DNA of 64,000 nt, taken from positions 73,618-137,617 of the IMG/VR virus record IMGVR_UViG_3300017747_005082. One strand, given 5' to 3'. How positions within the stretch are numbered: position 1 is the first letter of the stretch; the number at the start of each line of letters is the position of its first letter. The notes under the pieces were generated by a model, which made no database searches, was not told where the DNA came from, and saw nothing but the letters and a program-made list of their open reading frames with translations. This document shows, in pieces, positions 395 to 61,348 of this stretch. This stretch comes from a virus. Taxonomy: Duplodnaviria > Heunggongvirae > Uroviricota > Caudoviricetes. The position numbers and the translations under genes are program-made.

Positions 395-408
395 TGTAAA
401 TATATGAA
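395..408 (-). promoter_or_regulatory. conserved promoter-like motif (coding strand TTCATATATTTACA)
   Basis: + strand tgtaaatatatgaa, 17 nt upstream of the 19..378 ATG. Confidence 0.5.
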
Positions 409-859: not shown

Positions 860-873
860 TGTAAATATATGAA
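860..873 (-). promoter_or_regulatory. conserved promoter-like motif
   Basis: tgtaaatatatgaa upstream of 520..840. Confidence 0.5.
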
Positions 874-1916: not shown

Positions 1917-1930
1917 TGTAAATATATGAA
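1917..1930 (-). promoter_or_regulatory. conserved promoter-like motif
   Basis: tgtaaatatatgaa 26 nt upstream of the 1472..1891 ATG. Confidence 0.5.
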
Positions 1931-2711: not shown

Positions 2712-2725
2712 TGTAAATATACGAA
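2712..2725 (-). promoter_or_regulatory. conserved promoter-like motif
   Basis: tgtaaatatacgaa upstream of 2470..2694. Confidence 0.5.
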
Positions 2726-3899: not shown

Positions 3900-3913
3900 T
3901 GTAAATATATGAA
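3900..3913 (-). promoter_or_regulatory. conserved promoter-like motif
   Basis: tgtaaatatatgaa upstream of the internal Met of 3374..3928. Confidence 0.5.
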
Positions 3914-5086: not shown

Positions 5087-5100
5087 TGTAAATATACGAA
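5087..5100 (-). promoter_or_regulatory. conserved promoter-like motif
   Basis: tgtaaatatacgaa upstream of 4303..5061. Confidence 0.5.
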
Positions 5101-7313: not shown

Positions 7314-7327
7314 TGTAAATATACGAA
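7314..7327 (-). promoter_or_regulatory. conserved promoter-like motif
   Basis: tgtaaatatacgaa upstream of 6854..7288. Confidence 0.5.
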
Positions 7328-8360: not shown

Positions 8361-8387
8361 AATTTTAAATTTTACCTTGTAAATATA

Positions 8388-8401
8388 CGAATTATATTTT
8401 A
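8388..8401 (-). promoter_or_regulatory. conserved promoter-like motif
   Basis: tgtaaatatacgaa upstream of 8154..8360. Confidence 0.5.
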
Positions 8402-10556: not shown

Positions 10557-11640
10557 TTTATTTAATTGGTTTTATGGCTGTTTTAGCCGGTTTGTAATTT
10601 AATTTTAAAAATATTCCTGTCAAGATTACAGTCTCGAAATAATAGTGAAGTACCAAACCACTCCACACCCTATTTAATCATACCATTGATACTGTATCTG
10701 TATGATGTTTTATTACCTCTCCAATAAATAACAGATCTGTAAATCTTGTAATAATGTTATGTTTTAAATCATTAGCGGGATTAATGCCCAAGTCACATTT
10801 GAAAATACATATCCTAACTATACTTATCATTCTATTACTATTTATTTTCAAGCAGGAATATTTATATTGTTAATCAGATAATTCTTTTATTTCGAATAAA
10901 TTATGTTTTTCACTATATGGAATTGTTAATTCTCCTTTTTGATATTTTTCTATATCCTGTAAATTAAAGATTTTAGGATAAATAAAAGAAGATTTAGTAA
11001 ATTTATTTATAATAAGTATACAATACATAATATTTAATTTAATTCATATTCTTCAAAAAGTAAATAATTAACATACCCTATAGCTTCTTCTCGACTTCCA
11101 CTCCCTGTATGTTGAAGATAATCAATTATATTTTCAACTGTATTACATTCTCCAATATTTCGGGTCATTTCAAAGAAATCAGCTTCTCTATTATAAACAG
11201 CATTTATTTCTTCTTGTAGCAATTCTTTTTTAATTTTATCTAGTAAGATCATGAGGGATATTTGTGTTTTAAGTTATAAGGTAAATATATAAACTTTATC
11301 TTAAAATTCCAAATTTTTTAAGACCCTCAAATCATTTAGAAAAAACTATTTATATTAATTATATTGATGTGTTATTTCAAAATATAAGTCACCTATATAA
11401 TTTCCAACTTCATGTTCTTCTATTCCACCCCCTCTACATAAATGTTGTTTCAATTCTTCAACAGTTTCAAGATTAATAATATCGCTCATTATAACAGCTT
11501 CATTAACATTTCTTTCATGTGATGAAAATCTAAACTCTTTAGCTACTTCGTTTAGAGCTTTTAACTCTTCTACTAATAGTGTAGGTTTTAATACTTCAAT
11601 AATTATATTTCTCATAACCTTTTATTTTTTAATCTTACAT

Positions 11641-11654
11641 TGTAAATATATGAA
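11641..11654 (-). promoter_or_regulatory. conserved promoter-like motif
   Basis: tgtaaatatatgaa upstream of 11355..11615. Confidence 0.5.
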
Positions 11655-12263: not shown

Positions 12264-12277
12264 TTGTAAATATACGA
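12264..12277 (-). promoter_or_regulatory. conserved promoter-like motif
   Basis: tgtaaatatacgaa upstream of 11731..12216. Confidence 0.5.
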
Positions 12278-13220
12278 ACAAATTTACTAAGAATCACTTA
12301 ATCACTCATAAAGTTTTATTAAAATTAAATTATATTGATTTTCTAAGTACTAAAAGTTTTTCGTTTGGTTTTAATTCTATATCTTTGGACTTAACAAAAG
12401 ATAAAAATGAATCTTTTATTGTTGGAAATACCCAACTTCTTAAATCATCAGGAAATTCACTACAATAATCTTTAAAAACATACTCATTATTTTTCCCAGG
12501 TCTCAAATTTCTAATACCCCCTCTTATAATATTTTTACAATCAAATGTTATTTCCTTTTCGGATGCGATGCCTAGTATTTCCATTCCAAGAAGTGAAACC
12601 GACTTATGTTTGCATATATTATTCAAACTGTCCTTATAAAACAACGCATTTCCAAAATTTGCCTTCTCAAAGCTATGTGTCTCTATTGGCATTACCACAA
12701 CAAATATATTTGGTATTATTTCTTTCATAAGATTTTATTAATTTCTTTATCTTCAAAATATTGTTTTATTAAATTATTTTTATAATTATATATTATTCCA
12801 ATATAAATAAACAAAAATCCAATATCTAAAGAAGGTGGACTCCAACTATTTGTTTTAATTAAATTAGTATTTAATACCATATAAGGTAAAAGACTTAAAC
12901 TATTAGGATTTAAATGAAATCCAAAGATAAAATGAGCTATTGTAAAAGATATATAATAATAATCTTTTTCTTTGGTTTGTTCTATAATTAGCCATTGGCT
13001 CTCAAATAATATTTTATACATTTTTATTAATATTTAATAAATATCGTCATCTGAGCTGTCACCATTAAATATAGTATAAAATACACCATATAAACAAGCT
13101 AATGTTGCTGTAATAATTATTCCTATAAACAAATAAACCCACAAATTAAAATAACTAAAAATAAATAATAATAATATAAATATTATCATTGCAATCAAAG
13201 GTTTCTTATGTTTTTCCATT

Positions 13221-15349: not shown

Positions 15350-15363
15350 TGTAAATATATGAA
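15350..15363 (-). promoter_or_regulatory. conserved promoter-like motif
   Basis: tgtaaatatatgaa upstream of 15017..15331. Confidence 0.5.
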
Positions 15364-16480: not shown

Positions 16481-16505
16481 AACCTATATTTTAATTATTT
16501 ATATT

Positions 16506-16537
16506 AGTAAATATACGAAAGGCCCCTTGAGGGGCCT
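16506..16537 (-). promoter_or_regulatory. terminator-promoter cassette: hairpin AGGCCCCTTGAGGGGCCT (16520-16537) fused to motif variant agtaaatatacgaa (16506-16519)
   Basis: GC hairpin straight after the stop of 16543..16818, followed on the coding strand by TTTCGTATATTTACT upstream of 15962..16480. Confidence 0.5.
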
Positions 16538-16821
16538 ATACCTTATTCTATAATAACTAAATCTTCCTTTTTATCAATTGGTTTTACCTCTATACCAAGC
16601 CCTTCATATTTTAATAATGAATTACTTACATATCTATATAATCCAACTATATTTTTTTGATCTTTTGTTTTCTGTATAATTAATTTTTTATCAGTCTCTT
16701 TTATATCTTTTGTTTGAATAAATTCAATTATAAAATCTTGAGCTAACTTTAAATCTGAAATGTTAAACAAATGGGAGGCAATTTGTTCAAATATGCTTTT
16801 AATGGGGAATTTAGACATAGT

Positions 16822-17855: not shown

Positions 17856-17927
17856 AATCTTTGTTGTTTTAAATTTAAAATTGTTTAATGAATTATTATT
17901 GTTTATTAATTTTACTTTGTAAATATA

Positions 17928-17941
17928 CGAAATTTAAATCT
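17928..17941 (-). promoter_or_regulatory. conserved promoter-like motif
   Basis: tgtaaatatacgaa upstream of 17394..17855. Confidence 0.5.
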
Positions 17942-18144: not shown

Positions 18145-18158
18145 TGTAAATATACGAA
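18145..18158 (-). promoter_or_regulatory. conserved promoter-like motif (drives the ORF-less segment)
   Basis: tgtaaatatacgaa. Confidence 0.5.
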
Positions 18159-18711: not shown

Positions 18712-18974
18712 AATTTTATATTTTATTTTAAATATTCTATTAAATTAGTTTTTAAATTTAATACCATATCATTTCCAATCATAATACATGGTTTTCCCGC
18801 AATAATCACTTGTTTACCATTATGTTTTTCTTTTTTAATGGTATTATACATAGATGAAGAATCCTCACAATATATACGTTGTTTTTTAATCGCCATCAAG
18901 TAATTTCTTTAATTTTGCCTCTGTTTCCTCTATCTTTTTATAGATAATTTCCAACATTTCTAATATCCCCATAA

Positions 18975-19545: not shown

Positions 19546-19547
19546 AA

Positions 19548-19775
19548 TTAATATATTTCGTATGTATTTTCTACTTTTGTTAAATATTCCCTAAAAACCC
19601 ACCAACAATAACCATCTTTTCCTCTTCCATCACCATTATGAAAATGAGAACGATATTCATCAAATTCAATTAATAAATTATTTTCATCATCAAATAATAC
19701 AGTCCCAATTCCACTTCTAATATCACCATTTCGGTATACTCTATCACCAATTTCAATTTTATTAATAGATTTCAT
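19548..19775 (-). CDS. YEIY-family small protein (...NTYEIY)
   Basis: C-terminal tail. Confidence 0.55.
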   Translation of the reverse strand: MKSINKIEIGDRVYRNGDIRSGIGTVLFDDENNLLIEFDEYRSHFHNGDGRGKDGYCWWVFREYLTKVENTYEIY

Positions 19776-19995
19776 ATGAAAATGGATTTATTGGATATCT
19801 TTCATAAAATTCTTCAAATTCTCCATTAGATATTTTACTCCAAAAACTATATCCTTCTTCTGTTCTATTCCAATGAAAATTTTTATCACCTGTTCCAAAA
19901 TCTAGTGATACATTTTCATTGGGAGTATTTCCAGCTTCAATTTGTTTTTCAAATACTTTTTGTTTAATCTCATAGGGTAAATCTTTTACTTGCAT
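19762..19995 (-). CDS. YEIY-family small protein (...FSYEIY)
   Basis: C-terminal tail; promoter motif 20028-20041. Confidence 0.55.
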   Translation of the reverse strand: MQVKDLPYEIKQKVFEKQIEAGNTPNENVSLDFGTGDKNFHWNRTEEGYSFWSKISNGEFEEFYERYPINPFSYEIY

Positions 19996-20027
19996 AATTA
20001 AATTTCTTAAAATAATTGAATTTATTC

Positions 20028-20041
20028 TGTAAATATACGAA
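20028..20041 (-). promoter_or_regulatory. conserved promoter-like motif
   Basis: tgtaaatatacgaa upstream of 19762..19995. Confidence 0.5.
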
Positions 20042-20063
20042 CTATAATTTATAAAGAAAATTC

Positions 20064-20624
20064 CTAATATATACTATATAAAGATGTTTCTAGATTTTCT
20101 TTTTTAGATATTATTTTTAGATAACTTCCTTTTTTATATTCTTCTCTTACCACAAGATTAGCTCCACATAATATTTGAACCTGATCACCATCTATTCCTG
20201 TTACAATACCTTCATCCCCAAATTCCATTATATAATTTTCATCAAATTTTAATTTAGAAGATGTACAATGACCTCTAACTGTAGCTTGTACTCTATCACC
20301 AATATTATATCCAAATGAAGATGATGAAATAATTCCACATCCTAAAGTTTTAAGAGAAATATCTTCATCTATATTTTCATAAACTTCTAAAAATTTACCT
20401 TTTCTATTTTCGCATCTAGTAACAAATTTATTATCTTTTGTTAAAAGTATTTCAGTATAATATCCTGATACTCCAGTAATAATACCTTTTTCTCCTTCCC
20501 TCATAGGTCTTTCATGTTTAAGGGATGAATTTGTACTACCCCCAGTAACAGTGGCAAATACTTCTTGTCCTATTTTATATCCATGTGTAGATGGTGATAC
20601 CACCCCACTTCCTTTCTTATCCAT
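20064..20624 (-). CDS. YEIY-related protein with internal tandem domain duplication (...LYSIY)
   Basis: Two ~80-aa repeats (G(Y/H)(K/N)IG(Q/D)(E/R)V.ATV.G...SS.LK...); tail Y-S-I-Y. Confidence 0.5.
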   Translation of the reverse strand: MDKKGSGVVSPSTHGYKIGQEVFATVTGGSTNSSLKHERPMREGEKGIITGVSGYYTEILLTKDNKFVTRCENRKGKFLEVYENIDEDISLKTLGCGIISSSSFGYNIGDRVQATVRGHCTSSKLKFDENYIMEFGDEGIVTGIDGDQVQILCGANLVVREEYKKGSYLKIISKKENLETSLYSIY

Positions 20625-21010
20625 ATTAAAGTTGGGTTATTTGTTCAGTTAATATTTTTACAGTATTATTATAATGAGTTTTAAATATATCAATATTTAT
20701 TTTACCAGTTTCATTATTTTCGATAATCCATTTTAGCACCTTAATTTCTAAGGTATCTTTATACTCAATTTTATCCATTTTCAATAAAAGACTTTCTAAA
20801 CTAGTTTTGGAAATATTAAACCATGATGTTATAATTTGGGGATAATCAGTATGGATTTGAATAATTTTTAATTTATAGAGCTCTCCATTACTCATAAATT
20901 GGGGTAAAAGTAAAGTTAACTTTGAACCATTATATTCTTGATAAGCAATATTTTCTTCAGGAATATTTAATTCAACATTCTTAACTAATACTTTAGAATA
21001 CTCATATTTA

Positions 21011-21463
21011 TCAATTTTTATTTTCATCTTTTACAATTTCAATTAATTTTTCTAGACAAGCATGTCTTGCTTCTTCATAAGAATTTACTACTTGATAAAA
21101 AGGTTTTTCTATATAAGGATGTCCATCAGCAATACCTATCCAATGATTTAATATTTCACCATAACCGCTGTATCCATTTTCTTCACACCCAATTGACCAT
21201 GAATATAGTAATCTATCTCCTATTTTATCAGGATTATATCTTGGAAGTATTTCAGCGTGTAAATTATATTTCTCTCTAAACCAATCAAAAGCCTGTTGCC
21301 ATAGTGGTGCTTTAACAATATCACTTAAAGGTTCTCCAAATGTTCTATTGTTAATACCTCTCATTACAAATTCACCTCTTAGATATTCAGCAAGACAACG
21401 TTCATCAAATCCTAAATCTTTTAGGTCTGAAGATAATGTGGAAGGTACAAATTGTTTTTCCAT
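21011..21463 (-). CDS. MKEQ mosaic-family protein, copy 2 (150 aa); paralog of 51685..52086
   Basis: [12 protein letters not shown](E/K)K and [14 protein letters not shown](V/I)K blocks; about 50 nt of near-identical DNA at the 3' end. Confidence 0.6.
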   Translation of the reverse strand: MEKQFVPSTLSSDLKDLGFDERCLAEYLRGEFVMRGINNRTFGEPLSDIVKAPLWQQAFDWFREKYNLHAEILPRYNPDKIGDRLLYSWSIGCEENGYSGYGEILNHWIGIADGHPYIEKPFYQVVNSYEEARHACLEKLIEIVKDENKN

Positions 21464-21466
21464 AAT

Positions 21467-21745
21467 TTAATATATTTCGTAATTATTTCCTTTTTCATCA
21501 TTTGACCAAATTCCTTTCTCATATATAACAAACCTTCCATAACCAGTACTATATAAGGTATCTGTTTCTTTATTATATCTAAAACTACCTCCAAATATAG
21601 CATATTCTTTTTTATAATTACTACCATCAATTTCTTTTATACTATCTCTTAATGCAATAAAGTTCTCACCTGTTTTAAATCTTTTATATCCTTCTTTATA
21701 TAATGGATGAGAATTATCTATATATGGAAAACCAAAATAACTCAT
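21467..21745 (-). CDS. YEIY-family small protein (...NNYEIY)
   Basis: C-terminal tail. Confidence 0.55.
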   Translation of the reverse strand: MSYFGFPYIDNSHPLYKEGYKRFKTGENFIALRDSIKEIDGSNYKKEYAIFGGSFRYNKETDTLYSTGYGRFVIYEKGIWSNDEKGNNYEIY

Positions 21746-21747
21746 AA

Positions 21748-21999
21748 TTATGCTATATTAATTATATTACCATTTTTATCTTCAACAATAGTAACATCAA
21801 ATTTTTTATCCAAATGCTCAAAAATCGGACCTGGAATGAATTGTAATGCTAATGAAAAAGCTTGTGCGAATTGTTGTCCACTTACACATTCTTTTTCTAA
21901 ATCTCTATTTTGTAAATAGTATTGGTAAAACCAATTTAGATCAAATTTAAAACCTTCTTTCAAAGAATTTCTTCTCATTTGAATATATTGCTCTCTCAT
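21748..21999 (-). CDS. hypothetical protein (83 aa)
   Basis: ORF track. Confidence 0.45.
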   Translation of the reverse strand: MREQYIQMRRNSLKEGFKFDLNWFYQYYLQNRDLEKECVSGQQFAQAFSLALQFIPGPIFEHLDKKFDVTIVEDKNGNIINIA

Positions 22000-22002
22000 A
22001 AC

Positions 22003-22314
22003 TTAGTATATTTCGTAATTATTTTTAATTTGTTTATCAAAATGGATAAATTCATTTTCTTGAATACAATATTTTAACCAATTTATTTCATCCTCAGTAG
22101 CTTTTCTAAGATTTTCTCCTGGTAAATTAAAAAAAGACATACTATTACCTTTAAGAAAACACCTTTTACTTTTAGGAAATATAGCATATAGATAAGTAAT
22201 TAGAGGTCCTTGTATTTCAAAAAATTGAAAAATAATAGGATAAAATTTACTACCAGATAGAAAAGATCCATAATAATATTCATTTTTAATCATTTCATGA
22301 TTCCCTACATCCAT
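22003..22314 (-). CDS. YEIY-family small protein (...NNYEIY)
   Basis: C-terminal tail; LRKATEDEINWLKYCI motif. Confidence 0.55.
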   Translation of the reverse strand: MDVGNHEMIKNEYYYGSFLSGSKFYPIIFQFFEIQGPLITYLYAIFPKSKRCFLKGNSMSFFNLPGENLRKATEDEINWLKYCIQENEFIHFDKQIKNNYEIY

Positions 22315-22316
22315 AA

Positions 22317-22604
22317 CTAATATATTTCGTATGTTTGTGAATTATTCTCTAATCTTTCTAACATTTCTTTAAATGTCAAAGGTATTGCAATATTATCTAT
22401 TGAAAAAGAAAATTGTAATTTATAATCTTTGCGATCCCATCCCCAACCATTTCCTAAAGAATTTTCACTCATTTTCCATCCAACGGAAGAAGGATAACCT
22501 AATTCAATTAATTTTTTTCTAATTATATTTCTTTCTTCTAAGGTAGAATTATCACTAGACATTCCTTCCCCAGTTTTAAATTGATATAGATTATTTTTTA
22601 ACAT
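22317..22604 (-). CDS. YEIY-family small protein (...QTYEIY)
   Basis: C-terminal tail. Confidence 0.55.
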   Translation of the reverse strand: MLKNNLYQFKTGEGMSSDNSTLEERNIIRKKLIELGYPSSVGWKMSENSLGNGWGWDRKDYKLQFSFSIDNIAIPLTFKEMLERLENNSQTYEIY

Positions 22605-22971
22605 TTTCTAAAATTTTATCAAGAATATTATATTTTCGATCAAAAATTCGATCAATTTTTTTAGTAGTATTAGTAGAGATAATAATTTTAACTCTAGTTA
22701 TAACCTTTTCTAAAACTTTATCATTAACTTCTATATTAATAATATCTTTAGTATTAACTAATAATGCTTTTGTGGGAGTTAATATTAAATCATAATGAGA
22801 TAATGGATTTGATACAACATAACGATTTAATAAAGGATCACTATCAGCAACAGAATTATTATTAATAATATGACCTATAATTATTTTATAACCTTGAATA
22901 TCTGTTTCAGTAATTTTAGTTCTAAAACATCTTTTGGTTTGGTTTTTTAATCTATTTAAATATTTATTCAT
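22591..22971 (-). CDS. hypothetical protein (126 aa)
   Basis: ORF track; promoter motif 22990-23003. Confidence 0.5.
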   Translation of the reverse strand: MNKYLNRLKNQTKRCFRTKITETDIQGYKIIIGHIINNNSVADSDPLLNRYVVSNPLSHYDLILTPTKALLVNTKDIINIEVNDKVLEKVITRVKIIISTNTTKKIDRIFDRKYNILDKILENVKK

Positions 22972-22989
22972 AACCTTAATTTTATATTT

Positions 22990-23003
22990 TGTAAATATAC
23001 GAA
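22990..23003 (-). promoter_or_regulatory. conserved promoter-like motif
   Basis: tgtaaatatacgaa upstream of 22591..22971. Confidence 0.5.
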
Positions 23004-23019
23004 TTATAATTTATAAATC

Positions 23020-23352
23020 CTAATAAATATCATAAAGTATATTATTTCCATTATATATCATTATTTCTTCAAGTGTAGCTTCTCTAAAATGATCAAGATG
23101 AGGAAACCAATAATAGTTATTAATATCTGATTTACATAAATTATGAAATTCATAATAAAAATGACCAGGATAAACTTCTGATGGTTGTTTAAGTGTAATT
23201 TTACATATACAATTTTTGAAAGAATTCATACTATGATTGAAATTCTGATTACTAGAAGTTATAACAACTATATCTCCGATATTATATTCTTTTTTCATAA
23301 CTTTTTTATTATTAAGACACATAAATAAGGCCAAATTAAAATTAAGACACAT
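23020..23352 (-). CDS. YEIY-family small protein (...ILYDIY)
   Basis: C-terminal tail. Confidence 0.5.
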   Translation of the reverse strand: MCLNFNLALFMCLNNKKVMKKEYNIGDIVVITSSNQNFNHSMNSFKNCICKITLKQPSEVYPGHFYYEFHNLCKSDINNYYWFPHLDHFREATLEEIMIYNGNNILYDIY

Positions 23353-23452
23353 CTATCAAAATATGTTAATTTTACCTGTCTTTTTGAAATAGATTCACTT
23401 ATACTTGTAATTATTATACCAATAATTATATATGTTATAAAATATACCATAA

Positions 23453-23713
23453 TTAATAAATTTCATAGATATTGTCTTCCAATATTTCTAATATATTTCT
23501 AATTCCTCTATGATATGCAATATTTTCCATTTCTGTAGCTAATCTCCAAGTATCTACATTATCAGTAACTTTTCCTGATTTATACCTGAAAGAAAATTTT
23601 GTAAAATCATCAACTACAAACATTTCCCCAATATTTCTAGCATCATCTACATATTTTAAAGAAACTAAAATATCACCTTCTTGATATTTATCCCAAAGTT
23701 TAATAGATTTCAT
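23453..23713 (-). CDS. YEIY-family small protein (...NIYEIY)
   Basis: C-terminal tail; WRLATEMENIAYH motif. Confidence 0.55.
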   Translation of the reverse strand: MKSIKLWDKYQEGDILVSLKYVDDARNIGEMFVVDDFTKFSFRYKSGKVTDNVDTWRLATEMENIAYHRGIRNILEILEDNIYEIY

Positions 23714-23734
23714 ATAATTCGTTTTTAAATTCTT

Positions 23735-24181
23735 CTAATGTTTTAAATCTCCACATACTCCTACTTTTTTTATTATTTTTAAATGGTTGGATATATAAGT
23801 ATCTTGGGAAAATAAAGTATTACAAACTAAAAATTCTGAATTTTTAGGGATAATACATTCATAAATAGAATAATTTGTAATCTTTTTATGTTGAATAAAC
23901 CTATATAAACTTGGTAAACTTATAAAAGAAGAATACCCTCCTTTTATATTTACCCCATAATTATCACGACTCCAAATACAAATTGTTCTTTCTTTTTGAG
24001 GAATGTTAATTAAATATAAATTATTAGATGTAGATTTAATTATTCCAGGAATTTCTGTTTCTTCAAATAACTTATAACATATAATATTTTTCCTATTTAT
24101 TTTTACTTTTAATTTGGGAGTTATATTAAATATTCTTTGGAATAAATTCTTTTTAATATCTTCATTAAGTATTTTTTTCAT
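23735..24181 (-). CDS. hypothetical protein (148 aa)
   Basis: ORF track. Confidence 0.45.
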   Translation of the reverse strand: MKKILNEDIKKNLFQRIFNITPKLKVKINRKNIICYKLFEETEIPGIIKSTSNNLYLINIPQKERTICIWSRDNYGVNIKGGYSSFISLPSLYRFIQHKKITNYSIYECIIPKNSEFLVCNTLFSQDTYISNHLKIIKKVGVCGDLKH

Positions 24182-24183
24182 AA

Positions 24184-24435
24184 TTAATAAATTTCGTATA
24201 TATTTGTATCCTCTTCAAAATGTTTTACTGCAAAATATCTAACTCCGTTTTCACCCTTAGGCCATAATATTATATCATCCCCTCCAAAATCTTCTAAGGT
24301 ATCAATAATAAACTTTTTACCAGGGAAATAACCTGCTCCAGCCCTTTTAAGTTGGTCTTTATTTTGAGACAATTGATCTAACTCAATACATATAACAGTA
24401 TCTCCTTTTTTGAAATTATGTTTCATGATTTTCAA
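24184..24435 (-). CDS. YEIY-family small protein (...NIYEIY)
   Basis: C-terminal tail; terminator-promoter cassette 24444-24475 upstream. Confidence 0.55.
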   Translation of the reverse strand: MKIMKHNFKKGDTVICIELDQLSQNKDQLKRAGAGYFPGKKFIIDTLEDFGGDDIILWPKGENGVRYFAVKHFEEDTNIYEIY

Positions 24436-24443
24436 TTTATATT

Positions 24444-24475
24444 CGTAAATATACGAAAGGCCTCTTAAGAGGCCT
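24444..24475 (-). promoter_or_regulatory. terminator-promoter cassette: motif cgtaaatatacgaa (24444-24457) fused to hairpin AGGCCTCTTAAGAGGCCT (24458-24475)
   Basis: Near-identical cassettes at 35617-35647 and 61313-61344. Confidence 0.55.
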
Positions 24476-24593
24476 AATAATTTTAATAAATCGTAATTTT
24501 TGGTTTTTGTGAAACATTTTTAAGTTTCAACCATTCCATTAAGTTTTGAACTTTGCTTTTGTTACTTGTTTTGCTCATTTTATTTTATATTAA

Positions 24594-24857
24594 TTAATAA
24601 ATTTCATATATTTTATTATAATTTATAATATCTACTTCTTCAAAAAATGATTTATTAAAATTACCCTTATATCTATTTCCTTCAGGGAAAAAATAAAAAT
24701 CACTATTATAAGTTCCTTTTATATTTGCCCAAGTTATATCTCCTACTTTCATATTTTCAGGAAAATGTGATTTATAATCTCCTTCATATGGTTTAATTAA
24801 TTTTATCCATATAATTTCTCCTTTTGGAGGATAATATTTATATTCTTGATTATTCAT
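24594..24857 (-). CDS. YEIY-family small protein (...KIYEIY)
   Basis: C-terminal tail. Confidence 0.55.
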   Translation of the reverse strand: MNNQEYKYYPPKGEIIWIKLIKPYEGDYKSHFPENMKVGDITWANIKGTYNSDFYFFPEGNRYKGNFNKSFFEEVDIINYNKIYEIY

Positions 24858-25956
24858 AATCTTCTCTTGCTATATTAATAATTTTGGGAAATCTTAAAGA
24901 TAAATCTGAGGTTTTTTCAAAATATTTACAAGTGCATGTTTTTCCTATTAGATTTTCTCTATCCCTCCATACTTCTTCTAGATATTGCATAGTACCATTT
25001 ATAGTAGCGTCTACTTTTATCCCATCTTGTGTTGTAAATGAAATTGTTGCTGCTTTGTTAGCAAATTTTCCAATACCTTCATTTATATTTTCAATTATAA
25101 ATTCCTCATCAAAAAATTCCTTATGTTTTAATAATCCTTTAGATCGTTTAGATTCATATAAAGAATCCAAAACTCTTAACATTTGTCCCTCATAGCCTTC
25201 GAAAATATATTGAGCTAATTTTTCTTGTAATTCTTCTTTATTATTGACTATTTCATAACCCACTAATACTAATTCAGGGATATCATTAATTATAGAACGT
25301 AATATATTAATTCGTTCCATATAAACATAATCATTTCCATCAAAATTAGGTATATCATAAACATAATATTTGATATATTGTTTAGATAAATCTAAATCTA
25401 TTAAATTAGGTTTAGTTTTTCTTACACAAGATACTATTGTATTAAAATCACAAGTATCTTTTTCAGCATATAATTCCCCATCAAGAACTAAATCAGGATA
25501 TTTTTCAAATAAAGGTTTTAATGCCTCATTTATATGAGGAGCAGATATAATTTCTTTTCCATTTCGTGAAAATACTCCATTTATATGACTAATGGCTCTA
25601 ATTCCATCTAATTTTTTACTTGAACCTAAAGGATATTTAATTTTTTCTTTAAGGAAATCTTTTGCAAGCATAGGTTCAAAAAATACTTTTTTATCACAAT
25701 CATTAATATCTTCCCAATATCCTAAAGACTTTCTTTTAGTCCAAAGAGCCTTGGCTTCTGCTAATGCTTGTTCTTCAATAGTAGTAGCATTCTTTTTCCC
25801 AATATTTTTTTCTGAACATTTAGTCCAATCTCCAGTAAATAATTTCATTCCTACAAATCCTGTTATAGTTCTAAAGCTATCTCCTTCGATTTCTATTTCC
25901 CATTGGTTTATATGATCTTTAGAATTACTTCTTTTATAAAGTATTGGTAATTTCAT
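24850..25956 (-). CDS. ATP-dependent DNA ligase (368 aa)
   Basis: Nucleotidyltransferase motif I KLDGIR (KxDGxR), LDGELY, FEGYEGQMLR and LLKHK (motifs III-V); size matches T7-type ligases. Confidence 0.75.
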   Translation of the reverse strand: MKLPILYKRSNSKDHINQWEIEIEGDSFRTITGFVGMKLFTGDWTKCSEKNIGKKNATTIEEQALAEAKALWTKRKSLGYWEDINDCDKKVFFEPMLAKDFLKEKIKYPLGSSKKLDGIRAISHINGVFSRNGKEIISAPHINEALKPLFEKYPDLVLDGELYAEKDTCDFNTIVSCVRKTKPNLIDLDLSKQYIKYYVYDIPNFDGNDYVYMERINILRSIINDIPELVLVGYEIVNNKEELQEKLAQYIFEGYEGQMLRVLDSLYESKRSKGLLKHKEFFDEEFIIENINEGIGKFANKAATISFTTQDGIKVDATINGTMQYLEEVWRDRENLIGKTCTCKYFEKTSDLSLRFPKIINIAREDYE

Positions 25957-25961
25957 TTATA

Positions 25962-26237
25962 TTATTTAATTATTATAGTTCCTTCTTTTATACCATATGG
26001 AGACTTCTCTTGAAAATAATTTATTCCTGTTATAGTATCTTTGGTTAGAATCCATAATGAAGTTTCTTTCCAAGTTACTGTTATTAAAGTATGATTTTTC
26101 TTTAATTTTACCTCTTCAGTCCCTCCCCAATTTCTTGCTCTTTCATTATCAGTACAACTGTATATAAATAATATACTTAATAATATTAAAAAAATATTAA
26201 TATATTTCATAATTTGAAATTTTTGTTGTTTTTTCAA
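25962..26237 (-). CDS. small secreted/membrane-anchored protein (91 aa)
   Basis: N-terminal hydrophobic segment ending ...IYSC. Confidence 0.4.
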   Translation of the reverse strand: MKKQQKFQIMKYINIFLILLSILFIYSCTDNERARNWGGTEEVKLKKNHTLITVTWKETSLWILTKDTITGINYFQEKSPYGIKEGTIIIK

Positions 26238-26478
26238 TTTTGCAGGGATTTGAATTTTCTTGTATCATTTTTTCAAATTCCTCTCCAGATATCATTAATT
26301 CAATATAAGGTTCAGAACTATCCATTTCCAAACACATCACTTTTCCCTCTATTACTCCATAGTAAGAGCTTAATAAAGCATTCCAATTAAAAGAATGGTT
26401 ATAATTTTTATTTATAAAATTTCTTACATATTGGAAATTCTTATCACCAAAACTCACTAAAAAATTATTCTTATCCAT
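26197..26478 (-). CDS. YEIY-family small protein (...SNYEIY)
   Basis: C-terminal tail. Confidence 0.55.
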   Translation of the reverse strand: MDKNNFLVSFGDKNFQYVRNFINKNYNHSFNWNALLSSYYGVIEGKVMCLEMDSSEPYIELMISGEEFEKMIQENSNPCKIEKTTKISNYEIY

Positions 26479-26480
26479 AT

Positions 26481-26705
26481 TTAATATATTTCATAATTAT
26501 TTTCAGGTAAAGATATTATACTATAATGAATTTGATTATTTAAATATGCACAAATTTCAATAATTGTATGATCATAATATACAGTTCCGTCTTTTTTTAA
26601 CAGATCAACTGTTTCTAAGTTTTGTGATTTTGGAAATAAAATTTCATAAGTTTCATGTTTATTTCCAAATTTTATACCTATAATTTCTTGTTGAGTAGTA
26701 TACAT
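26481..26705 (-). CDS. YEIY-family small protein (...NNYEIY)
   Basis: C-terminal tail; promoter motif 26724-26737. Confidence 0.55.
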   Translation of the reverse strand: MYTTQQEIIGIKFGNKHETYEILFPKSQNLETVDLLKKDGTVYYDHTIIEICAYLNNQIHYSIISLPENNYEIY

Positions 26706-26723
26706 AACTAATATTTTTATTTA

Positions 26724-26737
26724 TGTAAATATATGAA
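26724..26737 (-). promoter_or_regulatory. conserved promoter-like motif
   Basis: tgtaaatatatgaa upstream of 26481..26705. Confidence 0.5.
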
Positions 26738-26744
26738 TTTTAAA

Positions 26745-27278
26745 TTATAAATCCAAATAAGATTTGATAATTTTTACTTGTTTTCTTAGTTTTGTTTCGT
26801 ATTTTTTTGTTATCGCATATCTTCTTTTGGAACAGTTAACAAAATTATTGAGGAGTTTTGTTAATGAAGAACAGGATAAATAAGAGGATGCTATTATAAA
26901 ATAATAGGCTTCAACCCCCTCTTTTATTGAATTATATTTTACGTAACCTTTTTTACTATTAATAGAATATGGATTATTTTTCTTTTTTCCTACTCCTTCA
27001 TTTCCTAATGATGTTTCAATTATTGCTTGTGATATTGCCAATTCATAAGGAACAATAATATCAAGTGAATCATAAACCTTTATTGCATTATCATACAAAT
27101 CTTCTGCTGTTATTTGTGATTTTGGATAATGTTCTAATATTCTTGCAGAATTATAATAATAGGTACTATCAATTTGACTATAAGTTTTAAATGAACAAAA
27201 CAATATAAATAATAACAATATTTTTCTCATATTAATAAATTTCGTAAATATTCTCTTTTTGGGAAACCAATCCCTCAT
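26745..27278 (-). CDS. secreted glucosaminidase-like peptidoglycan hydrolase (177 aa)
   Basis: Signal peptide MRKILLLFILFCSFKTYSQ; ISQAIIETSLGNEG resembles the FlgJ/glucosaminidase AQAALESGWG motif. Confidence 0.4.
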   Translation of the reverse strand: MRDWFPKKRIFTKFINMRKILLLFILFCSFKTYSQIDSTYYYNSARILEHYPKSQITAEDLYDNAIKVYDSLDIIVPYELAISQAIIETSLGNEGVGKKKNNPYSINSKKGYVKYNSIKEGVEAYYFIIASSYLSCSSLTKLLNNFVNCSKRRYAITKKYETKLRKQVKIIKSYLDL

Positions 27279-27492
27279 TATCTATAAATAATATTATATC
27301 TGTTGTAACATGCCAATTTCTTTGATATTCCCTTCCAGGTACAAGAACTTGAATATTATAAACACAATCATTAAAACTTTCCATATTAGATATTATACCA
27401 ATATCCCCAATCTGATTACAGCTATATGAATCATTTTTTATAATTTTAACTTTATCTCCTATTTTATATTCAATATATCTCATATCTGTCAT
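27232..27492 (-). CDS. YEIY-family small protein (...ENIYEIY)
   Basis: C-terminal tail. Confidence 0.55.
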   Translation of the reverse strand: MTDMRYIEYKIGDKVKIIKNDSYSCNQIGDIGIISNMESFNDCVYNIQVLVPGREYQRNWHVTTDIILFIDNEGLVSQKENIYEIY

Positions 27493-27766
27493 AACTGGTA
27501 GTTATTTTAGTTACATCAAAAGGTCTGTTATTTTTATCATATTCTTGGATTTCTTGGGGAGAGGCGTATCTCCAATCATTTCTTTGGGATTTATCAAATG
27601 GAAGTATACTCCATCCATTTTCTCCTCCTTTAGCATCGTTTTCTACAGTTAAATAACTACTATCATAAGATATTTTATAACAAAAATTTATAGGAAAATT
27701 TACATCCTTTGGATGTTTGGAAGATAAAAGTACTATATAATCTCCTTTTTCAAATTTATTTTTCAT
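27470..27766 (-). CDS. YEIY-family small protein (...DRYEIY)
   Basis: C-terminal tail; homolog of 18421..18711. Confidence 0.55.
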   Translation of the reverse strand: MKNKFEKGDYIVLLSSKHPKDVNFPINFCYKISYDSSYLTVENDAKGGENGWSILPFDKSQRNDWRYASPQEIQEYDKNNRPFDVTKITTSYDRYEIY

Positions 27767-27777
27767 AAATCAGCGTA

Positions 27778-28044
27778 TTATTCACCAGGTCTTTTTTTAC
27801 TCACCCAGTTATGTTCAATTATAGAGTTTGGCGTTATATTCGCTTTTACTAATTTATTAGTACCATATTTGTATATAGGACCAATATATTCTTTTTCATT
27901 AATTCTTCTTTTATATGAAGAAGAACGAAATTCACGAGCAGTTTGTCTATACCACCCATTTAAATTGGGAATAAATGATTCTAAATTAGCCGCAGTTTCA
28001 AAATCATATATTAATTTTTCGGTATTACCTGTTTTTTCTTTCAT
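27778..28044 (-). CDS. hypothetical protein (88 aa)
   Basis: ORF track. Confidence 0.45.
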   Translation of the reverse strand: MKEKTGNTEKLIYDFETAANLESFIPNLNGWYRQTAREFRSSSYKRRINEKEYIGPIYKYGTNKLVKANITPNSIIEHNWVSKKRPGE

Positions 28045-28332
28045 TTAATATATTTCGTAATTTTCCATAATATTCCCATTATCCCCGTAAAGAATTAAAT
28101 TTTTTAAATCTTGAAAAGAATAAAATTCACGTATTTCAGATAAATTACAAGATCCCCAAACTATACCAGTTTTAGTATCCCAAAACATAAACACAAAATC
28201 AGTTTTATCCCCATAACAATATGTAGGTTGAGCACAATGATAATTTTTTATCATTAATTCCCAAATCTCTCTTTTTTCTGATGGAGTTGCTTTTGGATCT
28301 AAACCATCACCTTCTTTAAATTGGTATTTCAT
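28045..28332 (-). CDS. YEIY-family small protein (...ENYEIY)
   Basis: C-terminal tail. Confidence 0.55.
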   Translation of the reverse strand: MKYQFKEGDGLDPKATPSEKREIWELMIKNYHCAQPTYCYGDKTDFVFMFWDTKTGIVWGSCNLSEIREFYSFQDLKNLILYGDNGNIMENYEIY

Positions 28333-28334
28333 AT

Positions 28335-28634
28335 TTAATATATTTCGTATGTTTTGTTAATTTTATCAAATGTTTTATTAATTGATTCTTCAGAAATATA
28401 TTTTCCTTTAGCCTCACAAGACTCTAACCAAAATTTTTCAAATTCACTAGATTGATATATTTTATTCCAACTATGAGTTGCATCTTTTTCAAATTTTTTC
28501 CTAACAATTCGTGATTCATAATGTAAAGTACTGTTATATTTTGCTCTCCATATAAAATATTCATTATTGTCTATTGAAGTATAAATTTCTCCTTTTCTTA
28601 TTTCTCCTACAGTTATTTTAATTCTATTTACCAT
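28335..28634 (-). CDS. YEIY-family small protein (...KTYEIY)
   Basis: C-terminal tail. Confidence 0.55.
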   Translation of the reverse strand: MVNRIKITVGEIRKGEIYTSIDNNEYFIWRAKYNSTLHYESRIVRKKFEKDATHSWNKIYQSSEFEKFWLESCEAKGKYISEESINKTFDKINKTYEIY

Positions 28635-28873
28635 ATATCATAAAAATTATCTTGTTCTAAATCAATCTCTAAATCTATAGGCCTATATGAATTATTTGAA
28701 CCATCTTCCCAATCCACATAATAATAAAAATAGTCAGGTTTTAATTTATAATGCTTTTCAGATACTTTTCTTACTACTCCTACCATTGGAACTCCATTTC
28801 CATCTAATCCTTGATCTTTATATTCTGACTTCAGATTTATCCTAACTTTTTGTCCTTGTTGTAAATATTTCAT
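28628..28873 (-). CDS. YEIY-related small protein (...FYDIW)
   Basis: Variant tail Y-D-I-W. Confidence 0.45.
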   Translation of the reverse strand: MKYLQQGQKVRINLKSEYKDQGLDGNGVPMVGVVRKVSEKHYKLKPDYFYYYVDWEDGSNNSYRPIDLEIDLEQDNFYDIW

Positions 28874-29469
28874 TATTGTTTTATATTTGGTCTAAAACTT
28901 GTTATTTTGTCAAATCCTTTATTTTCCAATTTTTGTATATCAGATAAACTATCATTTCTTCCTTGTTCACTATCAACTTGTTCAGCTAACCAAGTAATTA
29001 ACCATTGATAAATTTCTTCTGCAGGAATAAATGAAGCCAAATTTAGTTTAGATAAATTAGGATATTTACTTAAATTTAATTTACTTCCCTCTAATTGCTC
29101 TCCATAATGATTAACCAATAATATTGGACAATTATATAATTTATTATAGTAATTATTTGGAATAGGAGCCATTTCAACTAAACTAAATAATCTTCCTCCT
29201 TTTTCATCTATTCTTACTTTATTTTTATTTGCTTTATAATTCCAACTAGTTGAAGGTACTTTATAACCAATTTCTAATAATTTACGTCCATAATAAAATA
29301 CTCCATTTAATTCATAACCTTCAACTTGATAACCAGCTATAAATAAAATAATATGTTTATAAACATATTCTCCTCCATTATCTCTTCTATCTAAAATTAA
29401 TTTAGGATCTTCTCCATAAATACCTCGTAGATAATCATAATAATCTTTATATTTGGATAATATTTTCAT
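28873..29469 (-). CDS. hypothetical protein (198 aa)
   Basis: ORF track. Confidence 0.5.
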   Translation of the reverse strand: MKILSKYKDYYDYLRGIYGEDPKLILDRRDNGGEYVYKHIILFIAGYQVEGYELNGVFYYGRKLLEIGYKVPSTSWNYKANKNKVRIDEKGGRLFSLVEMAPIPNNYYNKLYNCPILLVNHYGEQLEGSKLNLSKYPNLSKLNLASFIPAEEIYQWLITWLAEQVDSEQGRNDSLSDIQKLENKGFDKITSFRPNIKQ

Positions 29470-29480
29470 AACCTTTTATT

Positions 29481-29729: not shown

Positions 29730-29749
29730 AACTTTATAATTATTTATTT

Positions 29750-29763
29750 AGTAAATATACGAA
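29750..29763 (-). promoter_or_regulatory. conserved promoter-like motif (variant agtaaatatacgaa)
   Basis: Upstream of 29481..29729. Confidence 0.45.
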
Positions 29764-30390
29764 AAAATATTTATTCATCAAAGCTTTTTATATAATCTTG
29801 CAATTCTTGTCTTTCTTTATCTAGCTGTTGTTGTACTTTTTTAGGTATTTTAGGTAAATCTGTTGTTTTACCTTTAAGAAAAGTTTTATCAATATTCCAA
29901 TCTTTACAATCAAGTATATCTTTATCTAAAATACCTCTAAATACCATAAAATCTTCAATAATATTACCTTCTTCCTCTTCCTCGAATATAAATTGGGGAG
30001 AGTGAAAAAACTGTATTATTTCTTCTTTAGAAGCCATTACTCCTGGAGTATTAGCTAATAATTTAGCAATTTCTAATTTAGTCATGTAAAAGGGCATTCT
30101 TTTGAAACTTCATCTATAGAATTATATCCTAACATATAATGAAATTGTGATTTATAAATTTTATATGATTTCCTATATTTAGTAATAGTTTTTGAACCAG
30201 TATACTCTTGTCCATATACTCTTAGAAAAACATAATAATAATGAATATATTTATAATCAGGTAATTTTAAATTCCATATAAAATATAATAGTGTTAAAAA
30301 TATATAATATGGTAAAATTATTATAAAAATTATAGTTGTGTAAAGTAATTTTAAAAATGGTATAATAATATATTTCATTTTATTTTTATT

Positions 30391-30401
30391 TAATATACGA
30401 A
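30391..30401 (-). promoter_or_regulatory. promoter-like motif variant (taatatacgaa)
   Basis: Between terminator 30411-30440 and the 30082..30378 ATG. Confidence 0.35.
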
Positions 30402-30410
30402 AAATATTTA

Positions 30411-30440
30411 GATAAAAAAAGACCTCAATTGAGGTCCTTT
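30411..30440 (-). terminator. rho-independent terminator after the thioredoxin gene
   Basis: Minus strand AAAAGGACCTC-AATT-GAGGTCTTTTTTT: 6-7 bp GC stem, 4-nt loop, U7 tail. Confidence 0.7.
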
Positions 30441-32781: not shown

Positions 32782-33844
32782 TATTTGAAATATTTTTTAT
32801 AAGGAAAACAAATTAAACCAATAACACTTAATGTAGAAGTAATAAACCAAAGAGTAGGATATGGACTTCTAAATACCATCATATTTAAAATAACCAATAT
32901 AACTATCATTATTATAAAAATAATAATCCTTACAGCTAATTTTTTCATACTATTATAGTACTTTTAAGAATTTAGTTTCTTTAACATTTACTACAGTAAA
33001 ATCCAAATTATCACCTTCATCAGTGAACATTTTATTTACTTTAGTTTCAGCATCTAAACAAGAAATAGCATCTACTAAATATTTCTCTTTAGTAACTTGA
33101 ATTTTACCTTTGTCATTTTCTATTTTAGTGTTGACATTCACTTCATAAAATTTATTCATATTATATTTGATTTTTTAATTATTTTAAATATATGAAAAAA
33201 TATTTAAGATTCCAAATCTAAAATTTGTTTTTCTAAATCTCTAGCAGAAACTGCCAATTCATAATATTGGAAAGTACATGCCCAATCTTTTATTTCTTTA
33301 AGCATATCTAACCAATTATCAATATAAACTGACATATATTTCTTTTCTTTAGTTTGGAATGTTACTTCAAATATATCAATTGTAGCTAATTTTTTATTTT
33401 TATCTAGGTGTTTTTGTAATTCAACTAGAGTATATTCATATAATTCTTTTTTATTTGAGTTATAGTAATCTACTAGTTCATCTTCATCAAATACTTTAAT
33501 TTTTCGCATTCTTTCTTGTTTTAATTTGTGGACGATCTTCAGGGAAATGATTATAATGTTCTTCTTCTAATTGATATTGAAGGGATTCCATTAATTCTTT
33601 ATCGGCTTTAGTAATTCTAGGTTTTCTTTCTTGATTTTTGGGATTATATTTATTTTCTAATTCTTGAAGTTGTTTTATTAATCTATCAGATTTATTATAA
33701 ACGGGATCATGAATTTCCACAAATAAAGGAGATCCTTTGGAAATATTCTTATCCCAAACCCATTTATATGTTATTCCATTATGGTCTTGAAAATTTTGTG
33801 TATATGATAAAATTGGTGTAATATTATCACTAGGTCTTCCTTGT

Positions 33845-35595: not shown

Positions 35596-35616
35596 AATTC
35601 GTAATTTTACTTCCTA

Positions 35617-35647
35617 GTAAACATACGAAAGGCCTCTTAAGAGGCCT
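35617..35647 (-). promoter_or_regulatory. terminator-promoter cassette (agtaaacatacgaa + AGGCCTCTTAAGAGGCCT)
   Basis: Near-identical to 24444-24475 and 61313-61344; upstream of 35380..35595. Confidence 0.55.
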
Positions 35648-35668
35648 AATAATTTTTATAATTTATTT

Positions 35669-52283: not shown

Positions 52284-52287
52284 AATT

Positions 52288-52318
52288 AGTAATATATAAA
52301 AGGCCTTTTACAAGGCCT
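52288..52318 (-). promoter_or_regulatory. hairpin AGGCCTTTTACAAGGCCT with an AT-rich motif variant, upstream of 52083..52283
   Basis: Same GGCCT...AGGCC hairpin type placed after the groEL stop; motif degenerate (agtaatatataaa). Confidence 0.4.
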
Positions 52319-52323
52319 AATAT

Positions 52324-61032: not shown

Positions 61033-61312
61033 ATTAATATAAAATAACTTTGTATATCATTTCTCTCAAAAAAACCTAATTTTCTTAAATATCCGTTATT
61101 ATATACCTCAAAATATTCTGTATCTTCCATAATTTTATTATTAATCACTATTTCTTTAGTATATTTTCGATATACTTTTTTATATGATGTCCAAAAAAAT
61201 TTATATTGTATATATAATTCAGTATAATTTTCCTCTTGATTATGATAAAGTATCTTAATTTTATCTATATTATTTGTATTTAATAAAGGCATAATTTGTA
61301 ATTTTATTTATT

Positions 61313-61344
61313 AGTAAACATACGAAAGGTCTCTTAAGAGGCCT
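61313..61344 (-). promoter_or_regulatory. terminator-promoter cassette (agtaaacatacgaa + AGGTCTCTTAAGAGGCCT)
   Basis: Near-identical to 24444-24475 and 35617-35647; after the MazG-like gene and upstream of 61029..61292. Confidence 0.55.
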
Positions 61345-61348
61345 AATA

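Follow-up and report, generated by a model that had tools for sequence, protein, structure and literature searches.

The locus at positions 24,444 to 24,475 of a 64,000-nucleotide (nt) stretch of tailed-phage DNA (IMG/VR record IMGVR_UViG_3300017747_005082, positions 73,618 to 137,617; the whole stretch is referred to as the window) raises the question of whether one short intergenic sequence can end one transcript, start the next and, in addition, help genes to move. A preliminary description of the window had noted at this site and at four others a hairpin running directly into a promoter-like motif, and had likened these units to the promoter early stem-loops (PeSLs) of T4-type phages, which were proposed to mediate modular gene shuffling. 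Our analysis indicates that each module is probably a compact intergenic cassette with two regulatory uses, carried by a T4-like phage, in which a terminator or attenuator hairpin is accommodated in the spacer of an early-type promoter.

Five Hairpins Abut a Repeated Motif

All five sites were found on the minus strand, which is the coding strand, and their sequences could be read directly. Five hairpins with the arms AGGCC…GGCCT and a stem of 7 bp abut copies of the motif TTCGTATATTTAC. Screening the window for the pattern AGGYCNNTTNNNNRGCCTTTYRTAT with at most two mismatches returned exactly these five matches, compared to 0.02 expected from shuffled sequences. The minus-strand reading at 24475 (L1) and 35647 (L2) is AGGCCTCTTAAGAGGCCT-TTCGTAT(A/G)TTTAC; in the copy at 61344 (L3), one G-to-A change in the 3′ arm results in one C.A mismatch in the stem. 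A sixth hairpin with a promoter, which is not nested and was absent from the preliminary description, is located at 30421-30436 and 30389-30401. The features are as follows.

24427..24482, minus strand: cassette L1, the whole intergenic region, comprising the stop codon, 7 nt, the hairpin at 24458-24475 (AGGCCTCTTAAGAGGCCT), the core TTCGTATATTTAC at 24445-24457, an 18-nt leader and the ATG at 24426
24471-24476 and 24448-24453, minus strand: the −35-like box TAGGCC and the −10-like box TATATT of L1, respectively
35596..35668, minus strand: cassette L2, comprising the stop codon, 21 nt, the hairpin at 35630-35647 (AGGCCTCTTAAGAGGCCT), the core TTCGTATGTTTAC at 35617-35629, a 21-nt leader and the ATG at 35595
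61293..61348, minus strand: cassette L3, comprising the stop codon, 4 nt, the hairpin at 61327-61344 (AGGCCTCTTAAGAGACCT), the core TTCGTATGTTTAC at 61314-61326, a 21-nt leader and the ATG at 61292
16481..16542, minus strand: cassette 16537, with the hairpin at 16520-16537 (AGGCCCCTCAAGGGGCCT), the core TTCGTATATTTAC at 16507-16519 and the ATG at 16480
52284..52323, minus strand: cassette 52318 at the 3′ end of the GroES-GroEL operon, with the hairpin at 52301-52318 (AGGCCTTGTAAAAGGCCT), the degenerate core TTTATATATTAC and the ATG at 52283
30389..30436, minus strand: non-nested terminator and promoter, with the hairpin GACCTCAATTGAGGTC at 30421-30436, a run of seven T, further spacer and the core TTCGTATATTAAA at 30389-30401

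Each nested cassette extends from the stop codon to the start codon of co-oriented genes over an intergenic distance of 40-73 nt, with the hairpin starting 4-21 nt past the stop and the ATG following 17-39 nt past the hairpin. The near-identity of the three main copies (L1, L2 and L3), to which the preliminary description had drawn attention, was clearly borne out. L1 and L2 share ~44 nt with 3 mismatches, including the upstream AAAATTATT, and L2 and L3 share ~62 nt with 5 mismatches, running from the hairpin to the ATG and including the core variant TATGTTTAC, which is absent elsewhere in the window. The coding strand of the 64 kb contains eight GC-rich perfect stems, or nine including the mismatched copy at 61344, five of which belong to the nested type. 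Since cassettes 24475, 35647 and 52318 recur in independent assemblies (JGI 3300017707 and Logan SRR10520816 contigs; L1 in contigs L001 and L002, L2 in L029 and cassette 52318 in L027 and L028), these three are not assembly artefacts. One Logan contig terminates exactly within cassette 24475, as expected of a repeat. No RNA family known to Rfam covers the cassettes. In L1 only, the core also forms part of a second inverted repeat, TTCGTA-TATT-TACGAA (window 24442-24457), which is predicted to fold into a second hairpin right after the first.

The Motif Belongs to a Bipartite Promoter-Like Element

The window carries 16 exact and ~27 loose copies of TTCGTATATTTAC, all on the coding strand and nearly all intergenic, 17-35 nt 5′ of an ATG. 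Core matches with two mismatches at most number 35 versus 7.2 expected, and 24 of the ~28 core copies lie within 1-36 kb, among small open reading frames (ORFs). Alignment on the core revealed a second conserved box, TTGG(A/C)T, at −19 to −14, followed by a non-conserved stretch, which gives the arrangement TTGGNN-N17-TATATT. A sequence logo was obtained from 31 copies of the window and 177 copies of relatives, whose contigs (60-71% protein identity) had been gathered via ligase-based and gp44/GroEL-based searches. It places TTGG at −19 to −16 and TATATT exactly 17 nt downstream. The relatives' logo is sharper and reads GTTTGGCT ... TTCGTATATT, and in the −10 region TATATT is accompanied by conserved TTCG and TAC flanks. 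We read the element as a promoter because it is strand-specific, intergenic and bipartite with a 17-nt spacer, and because it is conserved in a clade with ligases only 60% identical. As judged from these alignments, the repeated 13-mer is the −10 region of a bipartite promoter-like element, TTGGNN-N17-TATATT, located before ~27 genes, most of them small. Judging from the genes behind it, small accessory ones and those for replication, the element may belong to an early-type class.

No Shine-Dalgarno sequences were observed window-wide, the start contexts being AATTATG or GGTTATG. One might therefore consider the 13-mer an RNA element of the 5′ untranslated region, for instance a site of processing or, in a host that makes no use of Shine-Dalgarno sequences, a signal for translation, and the hairpin plus motif an mRNA processing junction. 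The strand specificity and the fairly fixed distance to the ATGs would agree with this. However, a second conserved box is found exactly 17 nt upstream of the motif, beyond a non-conserved spacer. Moreover, TATATT comes as close as 4-7 nt to the ATG in several cassettes (window 52284-52300, 7 nt; L110 5626-5682; L115 5701-5743), a better fit to a promoter of leaderless mRNA, and we regard the RNA element as very unlikely. The transcript starting from the putative promoter of cassette 52318 may be leaderless.

Two other assignments of the boxes were discarded. A Bacteroidetes-type promoter (TTTG ... TAnnTTTG), raised by TATATTTAC and the lack of Shine-Dalgarno sequences, was dropped as the terminal TTTG is missing in the relatives, which read TATATTAA or TATATTAT. 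TTCGTA with the downstream TATAAA/TATAAT was rejected as a −35/−10 pair due to a spacing of only 8-9 nt. The relatives' 177 copies (L003-L018) contain a further conserved box, GTATAAT, 4 nt past the TTCGTATATT core, with a looser TATAAA in the window; this box may represent a second −10, the initial transcribed sequence or a late-type box. At 17919-18158 (minus strand), two full cores are found 227 nt apart with no ORF of at least 40 amino acids (aa) between them, and a small RNA or a very small peptide may be expressed from the first core of this pair.

The Hairpin Is Nested in the Spacer of the Promoter-Like Element

In plain copies of the element the spacer is AT-rich and variable. The five hairpin copies read T-TAGGCC-TCTTAAGAGGCCTTTCG-TATATT with unchanged spacer length: an 18-nt GC-rich inverted repeat fills the 17-nt spacer, the GG of the −35-like box serves as stem base, and the 3′ arm stops 1 nt short of TTCG. 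The hairpin thus comprises a 7-bp stem and a 4-nt loop at −18 to −1 relative to the core. The preliminary description had the tail of the hairpin coincide with the start of the motif. Such an overlap is indeed seen, but its extent was understated, as the whole hairpin lies within the promoter-like element and shares its first bases with the −35-like box.

The same arrangement was detected in the relatives. A hairpin ending at −4 to 0 accompanies 28 of 208 cores (window plus non-redundant relatives), and two classes can be distinguished, one of 17-18 nt (e.g., tttGGCTCCCATAGGGAGCCttcg, tttGGCCCCTTAAAGGGGCCttcg and the window copies) and one of 24 nt (e.g., AGAGGCTTGGATTTCCAAGCCTCT-tttcg). Both hold TTGG (TAGG in the window) at −19 to −16, where it forms the stem base or, in the 24-nt class, the top of the 5′ arm. 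Among 72 GC-rich coding-strand hairpins, 26 are nested, compared to 0.4% expected, and 15 more are situated no further than 45 nt upstream of a core. Predicted folding energies are ~−12 kcal/mol for each hairpin and −12 to −17 kcal/mol for the 51-nt contexts, the mismatched L3 excepted.

Across the relatives, stem pairs 4-7 switch between C:G and T:A, U:G or C.A intermediates being few, and the loops are non-palindromic. Since a MAFFT alignment put hairpins with 3-nt and 4-nt loops out of register, a script was used to count the pairs, starting at the GG anchor. This compensatory switching, together with the non-palindromic loops, supports selection for base pairing and argues against a sequence-specific palindromic operator. 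The latter deserves attention, as the perfect 18-bp palindromes of L1 and L2 occupy the classic operator position exactly between the −35-like and −10-like boxes, and the cassettes hold 9 of the 24 GGCC and 7 of the 9 AGGCCT sites of the window. The palindrome could accordingly be the operator of a dimeric phage or host regulator, or the target of a nuclease or methylase, and would set at what time the five promoters are on or off. However, the loops differ (TCAA, GTAA, CATA, CGTA), the stem varies from 6 to 10 bp, and the 24-nt class places a different sequence at the same site. Because of these variations and the compensatory changes, pairing rather than a recognition sequence appears to be conserved, and we consider an operator most improbable.

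The plain promoter cores of the window are listed below.

396..408, minus strand: plain promoter core TTCATATATTTAC, no hairpin
861..873, minus strand: plain promoter core
1918..1930, minus strand: plain promoter core
2713..2725, minus strand: plain promoter core
3901..3913, minus strand: plain promoter core
5088..5100, minus strand: plain promoter core
7315..7327, minus strand: plain promoter core
8379..8391, minus strand: plain promoter core
11281..11293, minus strand: plain promoter core TTTATATATTTAC
11642..11654, minus strand: plain promoter core
12266..12278, minus strand: plain promoter core
15351..15363, minus strand: plain promoter core
17919..17931, minus strand: plain promoter core
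18146..18158, minus strand: plain promoter core, no ORF before the next core
20029..20041, minus strand: plain promoter core
22991..23003, minus strand: plain promoter core
26725..26737, minus strand: plain promoter core
29751..29763, minus strand: plain promoter core
33184..33196, minus strand: plain promoter core TTCATATATTTAA

Proposed Termination and Restart at the Cassettes

According to the proposed mechanism, the hairpin of ~−12 kcal/mol would form in transcripts coming from the upstream gene, which has its stop codon 4-21 nt before. Termination or attenuation would follow in the U-rich imperfect tail UUUCGUAUAUUU; alternatively, the stem would at least protect the 3′ end of the transcript. 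For the downstream gene, the host RNA polymerase holoenzyme would be recruited by the same DNA, and transcription would restart a few nt after TATATT. Neighbouring transcription units would in this way be insulated from each other within 40-73 nt.

The best available argument that the nested hairpin fills the terminator role comes from exchanges at orthologous sites. At the 3′ end of GroEL, L030, L110/L111/L112 and L114 possess a canonical hairpin with a T-run and a separate TTCGTATATT core 17-18 nt further on, whereas the nested form occupies this spot in the window and in L115. The stem is even identical in L030 and L115 (GGCCTCGTAAGAGGCC) and is one base off the hairpin of L1-L3. Likewise, between L007 and L008 (92% nucleotide identity), a separate hairpin and promoter in one genome corresponds to a nested cassette in the other, and at one orthologous promoter the inner spacer of 13 nt is plain in L007, whereas L008 shows a hairpin of equal length there. 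From these swaps we infer that the nested form may take the place of a terminator. A conserved hairpin past the m16818 homologue was not found in L005, L009 and L010.

Several observations weigh against a promoter with a built-in terminator. Regarding the promoter, the −35-like box (TTGGCT/TAGGCC) is far from TTGACA, and a generic sigma-70 scan, which is uninformative at 25% GC, found 184 sites versus 169 expected. Furthermore, the GTATAAT box could be the true −10, and the core of cassette 52318 is degenerate. Regarding the hairpin, L3 with its C.A mismatch folds weakly (−6.9 kcal/mol). The coding-strand tail TTCGTATA fails the rule of at least five T in eight at 24475, 35647 and 16537, the tail UUCGUAUA having just four U in eight; only 52318 passes. 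As the stand-alone terminators of the clade carry T5-T8 runs and the nested tails are sub-canonical, termination may be partial, and attenuation or 3′-end protection is a live alternative.

Taken to its end, this alternative would make the hairpin a stabiliser of the RNA 3′ end or a processing or attenuation signal with mostly read-through, and not a terminator, with the motif still acting as promoter. The U-tract is broken by CG, the terminator rule failed at three of the five sites, and the presence of only ~3 canonical terminators in 64 kb of unidirectional genes suggests that long read-through is tolerated. On the other hand, the relatives carry canonical hairpin and T-run terminators at orthologous positions, and the stem-loop of one PeSL of phage RB49 performed about like rrnB T1 in a reporter (PMC2839356). 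A hairpin without any terminator function is in our view unlikely, and a terminator or attenuator inside the promoter spacer is the reading we retain, as the comparison of sequences supports it well.

Possible Gene Exchange at the Cassettes

Being among the longest dispersed repeats of the genome, the cassettes might in addition serve as homology patches for the phage recombination system. This secondary and less certain function would explain the mosaic near-identity of L1-L3 despite unrelated flanking genes, L1 and L2 sharing the upstream and L2 and L3 the downstream half. A more far-reaching explanation holds that the cassettes are primarily recombination linkers of the PeSL type, so that homologous exchange among the dispersed copies would insert, delete and swap the small genes beside them, possibly via mini-circles, with the near-identity of L1-L3 as the footprint; we regard it as possible but tentative. 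Gene duplication as the source of the L1-L3 identity was rejected, as the flanking proteins are not paralogous at E < 1e-3. The mosaic suggests copying or exchange of the cassette itself. Stem identity alone, however, is weak evidence of exchange, since few kinds of stem are used (GGC-YYYY) and the distant relatives L011, L030 and L115 contain near-identical ones; such stems can recur by chance or constraint.

The preliminary description had proposed that the cassettes mediate modular shuffling. This was not established by comparison of six pairs of relatives with 55 indel events: 48 of 110 indel edges were located at cores, versus 180 of 460 gene starts with a core (44% versus 39%, p = 0.19), which speaks against cassettes that are primarily recombination linkers. 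Cores were present at both edges in 16 of the 55 events. Hairpin cassettes coincided with 15 of the 110 edges (13.6% versus a baseline of 8.3%, p = 0.037), a marginal enrichment obtained with a generous either-genome criterion from overlapping, non-independent pairs. Many other indels occurred without a cassette at ttATGa start/stop microhomology junctions, with overlaps of 7-19 nt.

Individual junctions are in line with recombination linkers. L008 shows a 1.1-kb insertion between two promoter cores, the right one with a hairpin, and L007 and L008 differ by a replacement with cores on both sides. The junction between GroEL and the gp44 clamp loader behind cassette 52318 (51685-54258; L030, L110-L115) is a hot spot of gene turnover, as the seven genomes compared show five different gene contents; the close pair L110 and L111 differs there by one gene right after the cassette, and L113 has an HNH-like gene at this place. 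The neighbours of the ligase on its two sides are, in the relatives, homologues of m30700 and m18896; in these places the window has ~4.5 kb and ~6 kb of lineage-specific genes inserted, and the first of these blocks begins exactly at the 30436/30401 terminator-promoter. In contrast, L1 is situated 375 nt within the second block and not at its edge, L2 is internal to another variable block, and any intergenic element beside a variable gene is trivially found at a boundary. The window's own cassettes are beyond direct breakpoint comparison because the nearest relative is only 71% identical (GroEL). Taken together, it is plausible that the cassettes take part in PeSL-type exchange, with which the data are compatible, but they were not shown to be preferred over gene boundaries in general.

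Immediately upstream of L2 is a homing-endonuclease-like ORF with NUMOD1 and I-HmuI-NUMOD domains. It shares 80 nt with the ORF that follows (36063-36752 and 35669-36142, minus strand), and one JGI contig from this phage begins within the endonuclease-like ORF. The cassettes had further been described as flanking members of a YEIY array. This holds for 24475 and 35647 and loosely for 16537, but not for 52318 and 61344. YEIY followed by the stop codon ends 19 otherwise unrelated small proteins encoded at 16822-35595 on the minus strand (e.g., 24184-24426, 24594-24857 and 35380-35595). Since its codons vary synonymously (TAT/TAC, ATA/ATT/ATC, GAA/GAG), the tail is conserved at the peptide and not at the DNA level, and no YEIY tail was found in the related contigs.

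A bolder combination of these elements would see in the nested cassette an evolved overlapping code, with the −35 box as stem base and two independent structural solutions, and at the same time an active vehicle that seeded a lineage-specific expansion of ~20 small YEIY-tailed genes. Exchange would be started by a structure-specific or homing nuclease of the phage, e.g., the NUMOD1 enzyme by L2, which would cut or bind the cruciform-capable palindrome. We consider this scenario rather improbable.

The Phage and Its Relatives

The window has 25% GC with every gene on the minus strand. Its gene content includes a family-B DNA polymerase (PolB), a gp44-type clamp loader with Gp44_lid, an ATP-dependent ligase, GroES/GroEL, a PD-(D/E)XK nuclease and glycosyltransferases; PolB, clamp loader, ligase and nuclease place the phage among the T4-like myoviruses. 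The best phage matches of PolB are T4-like isolates with only 26-30% identity, and megablast of window 23000-26500 yielded no match among GenBank phages. Because of the gene set, the low polymerase identity and the missing nucleotide match, the phage is assigned to an uncultured, deep-branching freshwater T4-like lineage.

Searches for closer relatives gave little. The cassette pattern, exact or degenerate, had no match in IMG/VR or JGI metagenome contigs, the metagenome locus search by ligase returned only relatives of ~60% identity or short fragments, and the IMG/VR locus search by GroEL found nothing. In the GroEL protein search the closest relative was 71% identical, with none nearer; an identical GroEL is recorded in the protein collection on a 180.5-kb contig.

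Further features of the window were noted. The polymerase region (56932-59445, minus strand) consists of a 617-aa ORF that stops within the polymerase domain and a following 218-aa ORF without a Pfam match. In L110 the polymerase ORF has 1005 aa, and L115 shows the same 617-aa ORF followed by one of 225 aa, so that a split polymerase is possible and may be common to the clade. The ORF at 15391-15954 (minus strand) matches the GmrSD N-terminal (DUF262) domain of a type IV restriction enzyme family, here borne by a phage. A dispersed paralogous family comprises four members (902-1468, 21011-21463, 51685-52086 and 56534-56923), one of which lies directly behind cassette 52318. A tRNA-like element of 59 nt at 9556-9614 (minus strand; Rfam tRNA, 43.8 bits) shows an acceptor stem plus D and T arms, with only 2 nt in place of the anticodon arm; ARAGORN reported no tRNA in the window. 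Finally, an ORF-poor stretch contains a match to the Rfam DUF805b RNA motif at 8932-8964 (minus strand), whose 29.4 bits are below the gathering score of 35.6.

Comparison with PeSLs and Other Known Systems

PeSLs were described by Arbiol et al. (2010) as repeated intergenic units consisting of a sigma-70-like early promoter, an AT-rich upstream region, a stable stem-loop, a Shine-Dalgarno sequence and a start codon (PMC2839356). In RB49 and phi1 the stem-loop is most often found between −35 and −10, and both promoter and terminator activity of PeSLs were seen in reporters (PMC2839356). The RB49 stem-loop mentioned above cut reporter expression about as much as rrnB T1, its position relative to the promoter boxes being unstated there (PMC2839356). 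Comeau et al. (2014) extended PeSLs to T4/PST and KVP40/nt-1, with a lineage-specific promoter and stem consensus (PMC4122927).

At the level of sequence, the likeness to PeSLs proposed in the preliminary description holds well: the window cassettes are compact units of a terminator-like hairpin and a promoter-like element in a T4-like genome and show most PeSL features. Like the PeSLs of RB49/phi1, T4/PST and KVP40/nt-1, they are dispersed intergenic repeats from stop to start of co-oriented genes in which a stable GC-rich stem-loop is joined to a bipartite element with a 17-nt spacer, here a putative promoter. As in RB49 and phi1, the stem-loop is positioned between −35 and −10. They are likewise concentrated at clusters of small ORFans: small lineage-specific genes surround three of the five nested cassettes, in 1-36 kb, and the remaining two are situated at variable junctions of the replication block. 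In clear single cases, insertions or replacements between relatives adjoin them. In contrast to PeSLs, the boxes TTGGCT/TATATT, flanked by TTCG and TAC, are unlike the versions of sigma-70, T4 and KVP40, the stem is GGC-YYYY instead of polyG/polyC, and the start codon at the 3′ end is present without a GGAG-type Shine-Dalgarno sequence, a difference that is probably host-specific and not essential to the PeSL concept. The phage, too, differs from the cultured PeSL phages in belonging to a freshwater lineage of 25% GC with a PolB at most ~30% identical to that of any isolate. The nested layout as such is already known, and the window cassettes are best explained as PeSL-like members of the between-boxes subclass in a new uncultured lineage.

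An ordinary intrinsic terminator with a separate promoter (L030, L110, L114; window 30436/30401) resembles the nested cassette in position and presumed function, and the two forms interchange at orthologous junctions. The nested form, however, lacks the T-run and the 17-18-nt gap, and its hairpin and promoter share nucleotides. Morons of lambdoid phages are autonomous promoter-gene-terminator units in temperate siphoviruses. The cassettes are similar in that small accessory genes would travel with their own transcription signals and be inserted without disturbing the neighbours. Whereas each moron is a single unit with its own promoter and terminator, one shared overlapping element is found here between tandem co-oriented genes of a T4-like lytic genome.

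Conclusions

Measured against the gene-boundary baseline, the cassettes are not clearly preferred breakpoints, which tempers the shuffling hypothesis. The comparative series provides a different kind of information: nested and separate forms alternate at one orthologous junction, and two hairpin classes keep TTGG in register, which together indicate that both presumed functions, promoter and hairpin, are under selection. The promoter model TTGGCT-N17-TATATT with its TTCG and TAC flanks can be used for the annotation of transcription units in this clade and possibly for host inference. The terminator-in-promoter design of PeSLs, described in a few cultured enterobacterial and Vibrio T4-like phages, would be extended by the window cassettes to an uncultured, very AT-rich freshwater lineage with another promoter consensus.

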